From positions 6,112,001 through 6,176,000 of the forward strand of contig OY761556.1 of the NCBI GenBank assembly GCA_963664705.1: a stretch of DNA of 64,000 nucleotides. The letters run 5' to 3'. Source of the stretch: Acidobacteriota bacterium. Lineage in GTDB: Bacteria > Acidobacteriota > UBA6911. The translations under genes were made by a program, and so were the position numbers. Below are positions 15,245-40,063 of the stretch, one piece after another. Position 1 is the stretch's first letter, and every line of letters starts with the position of its first letter. A model generated the notes under the pieces. The model had not been told where the DNA came from, searched no databases, and saw only the letters and a program-made list of their open reading frames with translations.

Positions 15245-16777
15245 TTACTTGCGGAAGCGCCCGCAATCGATGCCGTACTTCTTCACTTTGTAATTGAGCA
15301 CGCGTTCCGTTGAACTCAGCAGTCGGGCTGCCCGACTGCAATTCCCGCGTGTCGTCTTCAATGCATCCTGGATCAGGTCCTTCTCATAGGACGCGATCGC
15401 TTCGGTCAGGGACACGCGAACAACGGTGCCGGAGGATTCAGCGGTCTGCAGCGTGGGGGGGAGATGATGCGCGTGAATCACAGTGCCGTCGCAGATGAGC
15501 ACGGCGCGCTCCATGGCGTTTTCCAGTTCACGCACGTTGCCGGGCCAGTGATAGCTCATCAGCATGTCGATGGCCGGCGTGGAGATCCGCTTGATGTTCT
15601 TGCTGTGTTCTTTGGTATATTTCTCCAGGAAGTAGTCGGCCAAGGCCATGACATCCGGTTTTCGCTCGCGCAGCGGCGGGATGAAGATCGTGAAGACATT
15701 CAGCCGGTAATAAAGATCCTCGCGGAAGGTTCCCTCGGTAATCGCTTTTTCAAGGTCCTTGTTGGTTGCCGTAATGAGGCGGACCTTGATTTTGATGGTC
15801 TCCGTGCTTCCTAACCGCTCAAACTCACGCTCCTGGAGGACGCGGAGCAGTTTGATCTGCGTGGTCAGGTTCAAATCACCGATTTCGTCCAGGAAAAGCG
15901 TCCCCCCTTCCGCAAGTTCAAATCTCCCCAGTTTCCTGGACTGAGCTCCTGTAAACGCTCCCTTCTCATAGCCGAACAATTCCGATTCGATCAGTGTGTC
16001 CGGCAGTGCCGCACAGCTTACCTTCACAAAAGGCTTCTTGGCACGAGGGGAATTGTAGTGAATGGCATGGGCAATAAGTTCCTTGCCGGTGCCGGATTCG
16101 CCCCGGATGAGCACGGAGGTGTTAGTTCCCGCCACCTGCGCGATCTGCTCGTAGACCTGCCGCATGCTGCCGCTGCCACCCACCATGTTGGAAAAATCGT
16201 AGCGTTCGCGCAGTTCTTCTCGAAGATGGATATTTTCTGCGACAAGCTTCTGCGTTTCTGCCTGCACCAGGTGCTCCACCCGGACCGCTTGGCCCATCAG
16301 GCCGGCAATGACGCGCAGGAATTTAACGTCACGGTCGTAATCCCGATCCTTGCGGAAGAAAAGATCGACGCCCAGCGCGCCAACGGTTTTGCGTCCGACC
16401 ACGATCGGTACGCAGATAAAACTCAGTTCCTCTTTGAGCCCTTTCCTTTGTGCGGCTCGGTTCAACAGCATCGGCTCACGGCTCACCTGCGGAACAATAA
16501 CCGGCTTGCTGCTTTCAACAACGCGTCCGGTTACTCCCTCGCCCAGCTTGTAGCGCGCGCGCTGCCCGTCAGCTGTAATGCCGTTGGATGCTTCGATGAA
16601 GAGCTCATTGTCATTATTCAACAGCGTCACAGCGCTTCGAAACATGCCATGGCGCTGCTCCAGAATCTCCAAAACGCGATGCAGCGAATGCTTGAGGTTG
16701 AGCGTTGCGGACAAAACCTGGCTCAATTCCAATAGTGTCGCCAGTTTCTTGCTTTCATTCGATTCGGCATGTTGCAT
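15245..16777 (-). CDS. NifA-like sigma54-dependent enhancer-binding protein (GAF-AAA+-Fis HTH)
   Basis: N-terminal GAF (GEGVTGRV, SFICVPI), GESGTGKEL, ESELFGYEKGAFTGA, WPGNVRELEN, C-terminal HTH. Confidence 0.93.
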   Translation of the reverse strand: MQHAESNESKKLATLLELSQVLSATLNLKHSLHRVLEILEQRHGMFRSAVTLLNNDNELFIEASNGITADGQRARYKLGEGVTGRVVESSKPVIVPQVSREPMLLNRAAQRKGLKEELSFICVPIVVGRKTVGALGVDLFFRKDRDYDRDVKFLRVIAGLMGQAVRVEHLVQAETQKLVAENIHLREELRERYDFSNMVGGSGSMRQVYEQIAQVAGTNTSVLIRGESGTGKELIAHAIHYNSPRAKKPFVKVSCAALPDTLIESELFGYEKGAFTGAQSRKLGRFELAEGGTLFLDEIGDLNLTTQIKLLRVLQEREFERLGSTETIKIKVRLITATNKDLEKAITEGTFREDLYYRLNVFTIFIPPLRERKPDVMALADYFLEKYTKEHSKNIKRISTPAIDMLMSYHWPGNVRELENAMERAVLICDGTVIHAHHLPPTLQTAESSGTVVRVSLTEAIASYEKDLIQDALKTTRGNCSRAARLLSSTERVLNYKVKKYGIDCGRFRK

Positions 16778-16931
16778 GGCGTTTCCTTACAATATGGTAG
16801 AGAACAAAGGATAGAAGCTACAGACTTGTTGAACGGGCGTCAACTGGAAAAGATGCCTGGAAATGGGGCCAATTACGGAGCCTCGGCCTCCCGGAGGATC
16901 TTGGCAGAGTTGCACATTAGACTCAGTGTCC

Positions 16932-16975
16932 AAAAAACCCATTCGTAAATCCAAATAGTTGGATTTACGAATGGG
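16932..16975 (-). terminator. Terminator-like hairpin upstream of the NifA-like gene
   Basis: Perfect 17-bp stem cccattcgtaaatccaa-atag-ttggatttacgaatggg with A6 on its left (U6 on -). Confidence 0.7.
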
Positions 16976-17058
16976 CATGGGTTGCCATGAAAACGGGATA
17001 GGGCTGTTAAAATATTGTGAAATAAGCGGTTTAGTTCTACGGCCTGGAAGGGCCTGGT

Positions 17059-17075
17059 CTGGCATAAAAGATGCT
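17059..17075 (+). promoter_or_regulatory. Sigma54 (-24/-12) promoter divergent from the NifA-like gene
   Basis: CTGGCATAAAAGATGCT = TGGCA...TGCT with exact GG-N10-GC spacing (GG 17061-62, GC 17073-74). Confidence 0.65.
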
Positions 17076-17085
17076 TTGTAGATAG

Positions 17086-17450
17086 TGGAATTTCCCGTTA
17101 TCCAAGCCTTGGTCCTTGGATTGAAGCTTAAATTGCTTGGGGAGTGTCGTGGGACCGTCTCACGGCGCCAGGGATCCTTGGGTGGTTGGCTTTGTTCAAG
17201 GGCCGGGCTTGGCGTATAAAGTTTGACTGCATCAACCTTCCGCCAATTTAGCGAATCCCGAAATAACCAGGAATACTACTTTTTGCCGAGGGTGAAGCCC
17301 ATCGGAGTGCCGTGGCTTGACACCGCCTTCGGCCTGTATGGTTTTCAAAGGCGGCAGCTAGCCGCCGTACTCCACAGTTCACCTTCGAGCACGCCTTTTT
17401 GCAATTAGTATGCGGAATAAGTCGGAGCGGCGGGCTTTTTGAAAGCCTGG
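17086..17450 (+). ncRNA. Candidate structured non-coding RNA (family not recognised)
   Basis: No convincing ORF; several hairpins including a ~100-nt multi-stem rod (17287-17387) whose non-Watson-Crick pairs are G-U on the + strand; lies directly downstream of the sigma54 motif. Confidence 0.45.
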
Positions 17451-17516
17451 CCTTGCATGCATGCAGCTATGGCTTGTTGACCTCGAAACTCTTAGGGCAT
17501 AAGCACAATCGTCAAT

Positions 17517-18476
17517 CTACTTGATTTCCGAATAGTACTGAATATACGCATCCTCTTTGAGTTGGGCGATGTAGCGTTCGAGTTCAGGGTTGAACTTCTG
17601 GTCATACAGCCTGTTTTTGATGTAATTGCGAACTTCGTCCAATGGGCGGACGACCGAGAGTTTTCTCACGTCGATATGATAAATAACATAGGCATCCTTT
17701 TCCTTCTGTGGTTTGGACACCTCGCCATCTTTCAGACCGGCAATAGCCTTCACGGTATCGGTGTTCAGCTTGGATAAAAGATAAGTGCCGATGCTGCCGC
17801 CTTTGCTGGCGGTCGATCCGCTGGAATACTGGCTGGCCAGCGTCGGGAAGGACTCGCCCTGTTGCAGCCGCTTGTAAATGTCGTTGGCTCGACCCTCGGC
17901 TTCTGCAGCCCCTCCCTTGGTGGAGATCTCAATGGTACTGAGGGTCACTTCTTCAGGGCTGGAAAATTCGCTGATGTGGTCTTTGTAATATTTTTCCACT
18001 TCGGGCGTGAGCAGCGTAATTTTGGAGGACACAAAATAATCGACCAGCGAATTTACGATGATTTCTTTCCGATATTGTTCCCGGTAATCCTTCAGGTTCA
18101 GCCCCTGTTGTTCCAAGGCCTTCTCGAGGCCTTCGGTATCGCCCAGGTTGTTCTCTTTGATGACTTTTTGAATTGCCGCAGAAACCTGCGATTCGACGTC
18201 CGCGCTGAAACCCAACTCCATGGCCTTCTGATAAAGGAGCTTCTTCTGAACCAGGTTTTCCAGAATCTGTTTCTCGGTTTTTTGCAGGGCCTGTTCCAGT
18301 TCCTCGCCCGAGTACTTGCCGGCAAGTTCCTGGCGATAGGGAGCCATTTCCTGGCTTAAGTCTGACATTGTGATGATGTCGTCGTTTACCTGAGCCAGGA
18401 TACGATCCACGGTTCTTGCTTCCGCGCTGACAAAAGCAATCAGTATCGCCGGAACGATCCAAAGTAATTTTTTCAT
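17517..18476 (-). CDS. SurA/PrsA-family peptidyl-prolyl isomerase (periplasmic chaperone)
   Basis: Signal peptide MKKLLWIV, VDRILAQVNDDIIT (SurA N-domain), parvulin-like SFPTLASQYS...KGGSIG; follows mfd. Confidence 0.85.
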   Translation of the reverse strand: MKKLLWIVPAILIAFVSAEARTVDRILAQVNDDIITMSDLSQEMAPYRQELAGKYSGEELEQALQKTEKQILENLVQKKLLYQKAMELGFSADVESQVSAAIQKVIKENNLGDTEGLEKALEQQGLNLKDYREQYRKEIIVNSLVDYFVSSKITLLTPEVEKYYKDHISEFSSPEEVTLSTIEISTKGGAAEAEGRANDIYKRLQQGESFPTLASQYSSGSTASKGGSIGTYLLSKLNTDTVKAIAGLKDGEVSKPQKEKDAYVIYHIDVRKLSVVRPLDEVRNYIKNRLYDQKFNPELERYIAQLKEDAYIQYYSEIK

Positions 18477-18530
18477 CCGTATTCCCTTTATCATGCCTGG
18501 AGTATGTGGCAAACCCCTATCATACCAAAA

Positions 18531-38944: not shown

Positions 38945-40063
38945 CTAAAAGAAGAGCCTTAGCGTCTCGATTTTCCGATCGATGTAATCCCGCACCTGCT
39001 GCAACTGCGCGTTGAACCGGCTTTTCGCAAACCTTGTATCAAGAGCGATGAGCATGATTCTTTCACGCAGCGGAATCTCGGTTGAGAGCAGGTCCATGGA
39101 ATTCATGCAGTCGATTTCATCGCCCGCAGATGACTGTCTCTGCGGCCACCCATCATAAAGGTCATTCGTAAACGCAACGACCTGCTGCAATGTCAGCGCT
39201 TCGAGGAGCCCTCCGGCATCGAGTCTTTGAAGTATGGGATCATAGCTGCGCAGATAATAGACAAGCACGGAGGTTGCATGTCGGCTGTACTGATACCAGG
39301 ACATACCTCCGACGGCTCTGTCGAAAATGCTCATGGCGGACCGGCTGAGGAAGGGGAATTCCTTGCTCGCCTCACAGCCGGCACTGTCGCAGCAGCCGGT
39401 ATGCTGAAAAAAACCTACCTGGTCGCGCCCGTCGTACCCGCAGGACGTTTCTGCCAGAGGATGGGCCATGCAACCAACCCTTCCTTTTCTATCGACAAAT
39501 CCCAGTAACTGGCACTCAGGCAACTCGCCCTTCTGATAATGCTTCTTTTTTGCAATGCATCCGCCCAGAAACAAAGATGCCAGCCCGGTGTTGACCTCAA
39601 AGACATACCGGTAGCCCTCATGCTTCTGTATGGCTTCCATGTACAACGGCAGAGAACGCCTTGGCCGTTCACTGTCATACAGCGTGAGAAAGAGTCTTCT
39701 TCTTTCGGAAAAGCGCCTTTCCATTTCTTCTTTCCCGACATCCGGGAAGGAATCCTCGTATTTCGATGCTTCTATTCTGGGGTCCTGCAGAGGGTTGAAA
39801 TTCTTAAACTTCATCAGCAGGTTGCCCGGGCCTAGATATCGGCCAGAATACCGGACGTCGTAGGCTTGTCTGCTCTTTTCATACAATGCAGCTCGCTCTT
39901 CCTTCGTGTCCTCCAGGTGCGAATCGCCCCCTATATGGGGCAGGCAACAGCGAACACACGAAACACTGCTGTGCTGGCACAGACTCACATCCAGCGACTC
40001 GCCCGAGCGCATAATGGACTGTTCTGCAAATATTCTGTCTGCCTGCTCCGCTGTGTCGTGCAT
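38945..40063 (-). CDS. Cys-rich hypothetical protein (possible metal/Fe-S binding)
   Basis: 372-aa ORF filling the gap; LCQ..SCVRCC, ECQLLGF...VGCMAHP, GCCDSAGC motifs. Confidence 0.6.
   Translation of the reverse strand: MHDTAEQADRIFAEQSIMRSGESLDVSLCQHSSVSCVRCCLPHIGGDSHLEDTKEERAALYEKSRQAYDVRYSGRYLGPGNLLMKFKNFNPLQDPRIEASKYEDSFPDVGKEEMERRFSERRRLFLTLYDSERPRRSLPLYMEAIQKHEGYRYVFEVNTGLASLFLGGCIAKKKHYQKGELPECQLLGFVDRKGRVGCMAHPLAETSCGYDGRDQVGFFQHTGCCDSAGCEASKEFPFLSRSAMSIFDRAVGGMSWYQYSRHATSVLVYYLRSYDPILQRLDAGGLLEALTLQQVVAFTNDLYDGWPQRQSSAGDEIDCMNSMDLLSTEIPLRERIMLIALDTRFAKSRFNAQLQQVRDYIDRKIETLRLFF

Follow-up and report, generated by a model that had tools for sequence, protein, structure and literature searches.

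A rod-shaped non-coding RNA gene with a conserved sigma54 promoter in an uncultured Acidobacteria family, and its probable activation by a PDZ-kinase/NtrC-type system

The window, that is, the whole stretch of DNA that was analysed, comprises 64,000 nucleotides of the Acidobacteriota bacterium contig OY761556.1 (assembly GCA_963664705.1, positions 6,112,001 to 6,176,000). The locus considered here occupies the gap between a gene for a NifA-like activator and a gene for a periplasmic foldase, and comprises the following features.

15245..16777, - strand: NifA-like GAF-AAA-HTH activator (Pfam GAF, Sigma54_activat and HTH_8), the divergent neighbour
16929..16936, + strand: distal enhancer half-site TCCAAAAA; TYCAAAAA at about -130 in 36/42 syntenic loci
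16950..16963, + strand: proximal enhancer palindrome TCCAA-N4-TTGGA, putative binding site of a sigma54 activator
17060..17075, + strand: sigma54 -24/-12 promoter TGGCATAAAAGATGCT, with a predicted +1 at 17086-17087
17087..17101, + strand: single-stranded 5' leader GGAAUUUCCCGUUAU; leader motif in 31/42 loci; possibly trimmed off
17102..17212, + strand: rod-shaped RNA body, about 50 bp here (z -4.63 on the + strand)
17144..17168, + strand: tip hairpin; in the family its helix has 6 bp and is 98.8% paired
17168..17174, + strand: bulge motif CCAGGGA; CC(A/G)GG(G/A)A in 42/42 loci; likely functional site
17277..17433, no strand assigned: REP-doublet or MITE-like repeat, inserted behind the RNA gene and outside the conserved RNA
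17517..18512, - strand: SurA/PrsA-like periplasmic foldase gene (Pfam SurA_N and Rotamase), the usual convergent neighbour

A preliminary description of this DNA had read the gap as one structured, sigma54-driven non-coding RNA of about 430 nt, transcribed on the + strand from about 17086 towards a convergent gene. Its GG-N10-GC promoter is present (GG at 17061-62, GC at 17073-74), and the next gene, the SurA/PrsA-like one, does lie on the - strand. The folding energy of the gap also agrees with it: none of 100 shuffled sequences folds as well as the + strand of 17080-17460 (z -3.89), and the - strand does not stand out from its shuffles (z -0.97). Folded by parts, however, the gap is two separate things, namely the sigma54 promoter with an RNA gene of about 130 nt (17060-17215), and a dispersed repeat. 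The stretch 17087-17215 gives z -4.63 on the + strand and -1.07 on the - strand, and the repeat block 17280-17400 gives -4.78 and -3.20, respectively, whereas the spacer 17215-17285 (z 0.29) and the stretch 17395-17516 (z 0.67) are no more stable than shuffled sequence. The RNA is accordingly confined to 17087-17215. Within it, the sequences originally drawn as two hairpins, at 17101-20 and 17176-201, form the opposite sides of a single rod, 17102-17212, whose closing pairs have predicted probabilities of 0.97-1.00, against 0.0 for the pairs drawn at 17101-20. The 11-bp hairpin at 17144-68 was drawn correctly, and the hairpin at 17431-49 and a 25-codon frame opening with GTG can likewise be found as written.

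The rod that had been drawn at 17287-17387 exists with the pairs given to it, but it belongs to a dispersed palindromic repeat and for that reason folds on both strands. Copies of this repeat are numerous in the organism's own genome (42 matches in one search, 47 BLAST hits), and palindromic arms with a GGAG foot number 134 in the genome against 7 in the reversed genome. They form 18 doublets, 11 of them with the 69-nt spacing of the window's copy. The repeat stands behind the RNA in one of the 42 syntenic loci, the window's own. REP doublets and REPINs consist of two inverted palindromic arms with a four-base foot, and occur in many dispersed copies. The element at 17277-17433 resembles them in its dispersed inverted arms and its foot GGAG, and differs from them in that no cognate transposase flanked by the repeat was found, there being no RAYT gene beside any copy. 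It is a REP-doublet or MITE-like insertion and not part of the conserved RNA. The genome's sole IS200-like Y1_Tnp gene (L087; G000:C1:1439830-1440291) has inverted repeats of its own, unlike the GGAG repeat. A literature search returned no paper on GGAG-type REPs.

The RNA gene is present in 47 of 51 genomes of one uncultured Acidobacteria family. The promoter and the structure are both kept and sequence conservation sets in at the predicted +1, as expected of the structured + strand transcript first proposed. A TGGCA-N7-TGC element lies upstream in all 42 loci with an RNA match beside the SurA-like gene, and the distance from the -12 element to the closing stem is 26-30 nt in 38 of them. The rod has a median of 42 pairs across the family and a length of 108-117 nt. 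In a sequence-only alignment of the 42 loci, 16 of 27 rod pairs show two-sided change, a count inflated by kinship among the sequences, and in 500 shuffles the rod's fraction of paired positions, its numbers of two-sided changes and its covariation score were never reached. When the partners of the rod are slid against each other, pairing falls from 92% to 31-50%, for a structure that included five added pseudoknot pairs. A model-fitted alignment of 45 sequences, biased towards the structure, gives 17/27 pairs with two-sided change and 94.6% pairing. Folded singly, these 45 sequences have a median z of -4.7, with 42 below -2 and the + strand the stabler in 44; these figures, too, are swollen by kinship.

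Two regions of the rod invite particular attention. The bulge is predicted to be unpaired at 17169-17174 with a probability of 0.97-1.0. The tip loop is a C/U-rich heptanucleotide in the family consensus and has three nucleotides in the window's copy, in which the loop sequence is lost while helix and bulge are retained. This copy has the most diverged tip of all 45 sequences (8 of 28 tip columns off the majority), which may reflect relaxed selection. A possible pseudoknot between loop and bulge (UCCCU/AGGGA) is 89.5% paired, with two-sided change in one of its five pairs and the U-A pair broken in 16/42 loci. A possible pairing between leader and bulge co-changes in one clade of five, which amounts to a single event, and the leader is absent in 11/42 loci. 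Neither a terminator scan nor the aligned flanks revealed a conserved terminator after the rod. The 25-codon peptide that had been offered as an alternative product can be discarded: its start codon, GTG at 17149, is GCG in most relatives, its frame is broken by indels and its stops vary, and no conserved open reading frame runs through the 45 RNA sequences. We hold with high confidence that 17060-17215 contains a real non-coding RNA gene.

The gene is not tied to one position. An RNA homologue lies behind the SurA-like gene in 42 of 47 loci, and the five exceptions carry the RNA elsewhere; in the four exceptions that were read, the enhancer and the GG-N10-GC promoter moved along with it. In G031, G013, G032 and G064 the RNA stands among different genes and is accompanied there by its promoter and enhancer. 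Computational comparison thus shows a single conserved unit, made up of promoter, enhancer site, rod and bulge, that can change its place in the genome. The four family genomes in which the RNA was not found (G002, G019, G027 and G065) are 81-97% complete and consist of 290-630 contigs. Beyond the family, a model search found the RNA in none of 73 genomes from other families of the class, and 150 genomes from across the phylum gave nothing better than one partial match (E 0.036). An exact-pattern scan of species genomes returned 33 loci, all in Acidobacteria, Acidobacteriota or Terriglobia, and the tip motif was absent from viral contigs. In genome G071 there are two copies of the gene (L077 and L097), each with promoter and enhancer beside a SurA-like gene; this may be due to duplication or to contamination of the bin (7%).

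Expression data come from a relative in the same family (L142), an organism other than the window's own, for which 8 of 17 listed RNA-library runs were examined. A contig covers the RNA gene in six of the eight, from six studies. Five of these contigs end at 1566-1571, at or close to the base of the closing stem (1571), which leaves 15-20 nt to the predicted +1 (1586); one contig, the sixth, ends inside the rod. One library, which was size-fractionated, has nothing but the RNA contig within 1.2 kb. The two other runs (X8 and X11) have contigs on neighbouring genes and none over the RNA, a gap in contigs that proves nothing. The RNA contigs are strandless and mostly one read long, they come from runs that were selected for their matches, and four of them have one or more base differences in common and perhaps derive from one strain or campaign. 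They hint, weakly, that this relative makes a stable RNA that may be trimmed.

As these contigs are strandless and two of them reach into the end of surA, and as the RNA lies behind surA in most loci (42/47), they could stem from the opposite strand, and the conserved element could be a cis element of the convergent surA transcript, acting as a 3' stabiliser, a terminator or an antisense RNA. We consider this highly improbable. The + strand folds better in 44/45 sequences, a conserved promoter and enhancer belong to the RNA itself, three genomes or more keep the RNA at a distance from surA, and in the g30 genomes and G030 a BlaI-like open reading frame, identified by eye, intervenes between the RNA and surA.

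Comparison with known RNAs places the gene in no described family. Rfam release 15 gives no match over the RNA or the gap at E up to 10, and none over the loci of four relatives at E up to 5; the check that had been proposed earlier thus returns no family that reaches its gathering threshold over the gap. The acidobacterial motifs Acido-1 and Acido-Lenti-1, which are in Rfam according to the consulted part of their description (PMC2864571), gave no match to the RNA in the Rfam scan. A 6S-like RNA had also been suggested. Like 6S RNA (RF00013), the RNA is a long irregular rod with a single copy per genome, but it is 108-117 nt long where 6S RNAs measure 160-200 nt (184 nt in this genome), it receives no Rfam score and has no central bubble, and the sole RF00013 match of the genome, a canonical 6S RNA, lies elsewhere (C1:1247726-1247909). 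The small SRP RNA (RF00169, marked by a domain IV tetraloop) is likewise accounted for by a canonical copy elsewhere in the genome (60.1 bits), with none here. A Y RNA or YrlA was rejected on the ground that the genome, which is 98% complete, has no match to PF05731 (Ro60/TROVE).

A related reading makes the RNA a decoy that captures either sigma54 RNA polymerase or the activator of its own regulon, as a 6S-like feedback brake. Its rod is double-stranded, of fixed length and of the size of a promoter footprint; its bulge region, UGCCAG, is complementary to the -24 element, and the first bases of the closing helix, UCCAAG, resemble an enhancer half-site. Such short likenesses could be due to chance, however, and the canonical 6S RNA elsewhere in the genome (79.4 bits) also speaks against this reading. 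So does the missing 6S-type central bubble: in 41/45 minimum-free-energy (MFE) folds the shorter side of the largest two-sided loop has at most 5 nt, in a test that is blunt, as the MFE fold of the true 6S RNA also closed its bubble into side hairpins. We judge this decoy very unlikely. If true, it would be a 6S-equivalent for sigma54 and a feedback brake in the phylum-wide, undescribed outer-membrane regulon of Acidobacteriota described below.

The activator of the RNA gene can be sought through its enhancer. A palindrome TYCAA-N4-TTGRA lies about 110 nt before the promoter, with at most one mismatch in 36/42 loci and at most two in 42/42, against a background of 1.1-2.4% of random 80-nt windows; the distal half-site stands some 21 nt further up in 36/42 loci. 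The gene thus combines an upstream activator site with a -24/-12 promoter at a fixed distance, two of the marks of sigma54-dependent sRNA genes of the Pxr and Qrr kind. An IHF-like site between enhancer and promoter occurs in 14/42 loci against 10% of shuffles, which is a modest excess. In the window, a perfect palindrome of 18 bp surrounds the enhancer at 16937-16976; read on the - strand it runs into a series of T's, and it scored as terminator-like. The extended arms of this palindrome are absent from relatives.

The preliminary description had assigned activation to the adjacent NifA-like protein, and a role in nitrogen assimilation to the RNA. The protein is the divergent neighbour in the window; among 46 relatives with the RNA, 11 carry its orthologue on the same contig at no more than 13 kb from the RNA and 4 carry it as the direct neighbour; and gltB follows the NifA-like gene in G003 and G014. 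An orthologue was found in 25 of the 46 relatives, however, and not in the other 21, which include all nine g30 genomes, and these nine still keep the enhancer site. The protein itself scores 517.7 bits, where the nifA cut-off is 528.85. Next to nifH (which is over its cut-off) at 4.63 Mb (G000:C1:4631911-4634590) there is a second paralogue with 49% identity, and the gltBD-linked activator of the window is therefore probably not the nif regulator. The same upstream site, moreover, is common to a kinase operon and to outer-membrane barrel genes (see below). Activation of the RNA by the NifA-like protein is thus very unlikely, and the link to nitrogen is unsupported; membership in an envelope regulon is likely instead.

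In the organism's own genome, TYCAA-N4-TTGRA precedes the sigma54 promoter of an operon for a PDZ-GAF-PAS histidine kinase, an NtrC-type regulator and a TPR protein, and also that of a gene for a TonB-type barrel.

L118:1374-5574 (G000:C1:5421873-5426073): PDZ-kinase operon, with the common enhancer and a sigma54 promoter; its NtrC-type regulator is at G000:C1:5421873-5423300
L119:864-4313: TonB-type barrel gene, with the same enhancer and a sigma54 promoter

The kinase operon has twin sites at about -137 and -115 before its own promoter. When 30 kinase loci were read among 52 matches, 25 had a strict promoter and twin sites, four more had them by eye and one was interrupted. The kinase is present in 44 of the 46 RNA-bearing relatives, against 25/46 for the NifA-like orthologue. 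Among the best 25 NCBIfam matches, no cut-off is attained by either the kinase or the NtrC-type regulator. The autoregulatory layout of the operon makes its NtrC-type regulator the likely activator, and the RNA is probably switched on by this PDZ-kinase/NtrC-type system, encoded elsewhere in the genome. The link between regulator and site rests on autoregulatory position and co-occurrence, and another activator could control both.

What the RNA does may be considered in the light of better known bacterial sRNAs. CrcZ is a sigma54-dependent RNA with many repeated binding motifs, where the RNA here has one bulge on a rod. OmrA/OmrB and MicF are OmpR-controlled, Hfq-dependent seed-pairing RNAs with terminators, and the RNA here differs from them in its sigma54 promoter, in the pairing of nearly all its bases and in showing no preference for barrel genes as targets. 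In the consulted part of one source text, OmrA/OmrB and MicF appear as non-coding members of two-component envelope regulons that touch outer-membrane proteins, Qrr1-5 as RNAs activated by LuxO-P with sigma54, and CrcZ as a decoy for the protein Hfq (PMC13501541). Pxr of Myxococcus xanthus, as far as its description was consulted, has about 108 nt, a predicted sigma54 promoter and long and short processed forms (PMC5568312). Pxr has three stem-loops and lies behind the regulator gene nla19, whereas the present RNA is one rod far from its putative regulator; and the Qrr RNAs pair with known mRNAs, whereas no target was found here in a scan of one genome and for lptB in 27 genomes. By analogy, then, the RNA would work like the enhancer-driven sigma54 sRNAs Pxr and Qrr and would sit in a regulon like OmrA/OmrB, while belonging to none of these.

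We lean, on balance, towards a protein-binding rather than a base-pairing mode of action: the bulge is invariant, unlike the loop and leader; the sequences of the helices and the length are maintained; and no class of mRNA is favoured as a target. In the mechanism that we propose, a periplasmic signal would be sensed through the PDZ domain of the kinase, and the NtrC-type regulator would bind TYCAA-N4-TTGRA and activate its own operon, the TonB-type barrel gene and the RNA. The 15-nt leader would be trimmed off, leaving a stable rod, whose invariant CCAGGGA bulge would let it bind a protein as a decoy. Taken as a whole, this account of a sigma54-dependent rod gene, its PDZ-kinase/NtrC activation and its decoy function is tentative, with somewhat less than an even chance of being right in every part; its least certain part is the protein-binding mode and the partner. 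The analysis identified no binding partner. The A(N)GGA motif in the bulge fits the CsrA consensus, and CsrA is found in 33 of the 51 family genomes. As a universal partner CsrA was rejected: 15 relatives that carry the RNA yielded no CsrA, and all of them keep the bulge; 13 of these 15 genomes are at least 90% complete. A sponge of the CsrB/RsmZ type was rejected as well, with one conserved A(N)GGA, in the bulge, against many GGA hairpin loops in such RNAs, and with the failing co-occurrence of CsrA.

A close rival to the protein decoy is a base-pairing sRNA with the same gene and activator, whose C/U-rich loop or leader would cover ribosome-binding sites as an OmrA/OmrB-like repressor arm of the regulon; we hold this to be possible, though rather unlikely. 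The loop UCCCUUC and the leader AUUUCCCG are anti-Shine-Dalgarno-like and conserved, two divergent Hfq-like genes are present (27.6 and 23.8 bits to PF17209), and OmrA/B repress TonB-dependent receptors under a two-component system, as stated in the consulted part of PMC13501541. The bulge segment, moreover, forms 773 strong duplexes (-12 kcal/mol or below) against 387 for a reversed control. In the window's copy, on the other hand, the loop sequence is lost, and the leader may be trimmed. A target scan over 5127 crude gene calls of one genome singled out nothing, and 36 barrel genes were no better targets than the rest of these calls (p 0.28-0.97 for seven segments). The best candidate, the start of lptB in the lptB-rpoN operon, failed in a comparative test, being in the top 5% in just 4/27 genomes. 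Two observations may be recorded here: the Hfq-like proteins, at L120:1462-1896 and L121:1489-1854, have long N-terminal extensions, and in many genomes of the family an AT-rich motif resembling an IHF site, seen by eye, immediately precedes the start codon of lptB in the lptB-rpoN-hpf operon (L225:2259-2298 and L226-L255).

The RNA gene is a real, family-restricted and apparently undescribed sigma54 sRNA gene in an envelope regulon that likewise appears to be undescribed. A search of the literature for Acidobacteria or Acidobacteriota together with sigma54 or RpoN and small or non-coding RNA returned no paper, although supplements and subscription papers could hold one. Among the papers listed on related subjects, no title or opening of an abstract mentions the RNA or the regulon, and the consulted main text of a survey of sigma54 regulons mentions neither this phylum nor sRNAs (PMC12316311). 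Regulatory RNAs of Acidobacteriota are poorly charted, and the present gene defines a new family among them, with clear bounds, for which a promoter, an enhancer site and a candidate activator can be named; its host family is uncultured and its function is inferred. A rod with a single bulge is also an unusual shape for a sigma54 sRNA.

The regulon itself extends well beyond the RNA. The pattern of site and promoter occurs in 42 of 301 genomes across the phylum and in none of the reversed control, a count that includes one unpublished genome (G147) left out of further analysis (41/300 without it). Among 39 pattern loci that were read, 23 precede a barrel gene by tblastn and three more by eye, seven precede the kinase, three stand before other exported proteins, again by eye, and three have no open reading frame. 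The recurrence of the PDZ-kinase operon and the barrel module across the phylum looks like an undescribed core regulon. It exposes a conserved sigma54 regulon whose site is testable in cultured members of the phylum. In a genome from another family, the same enhancer and promoter precede a stretch of about 165 nt that has no open reading frame (L209; G132:C6, promoter match at 39695-39813). This stretch has a strong predicted fold, ends in a hairpin and a U-run, and may represent an unrelated sRNA of the same regulon.
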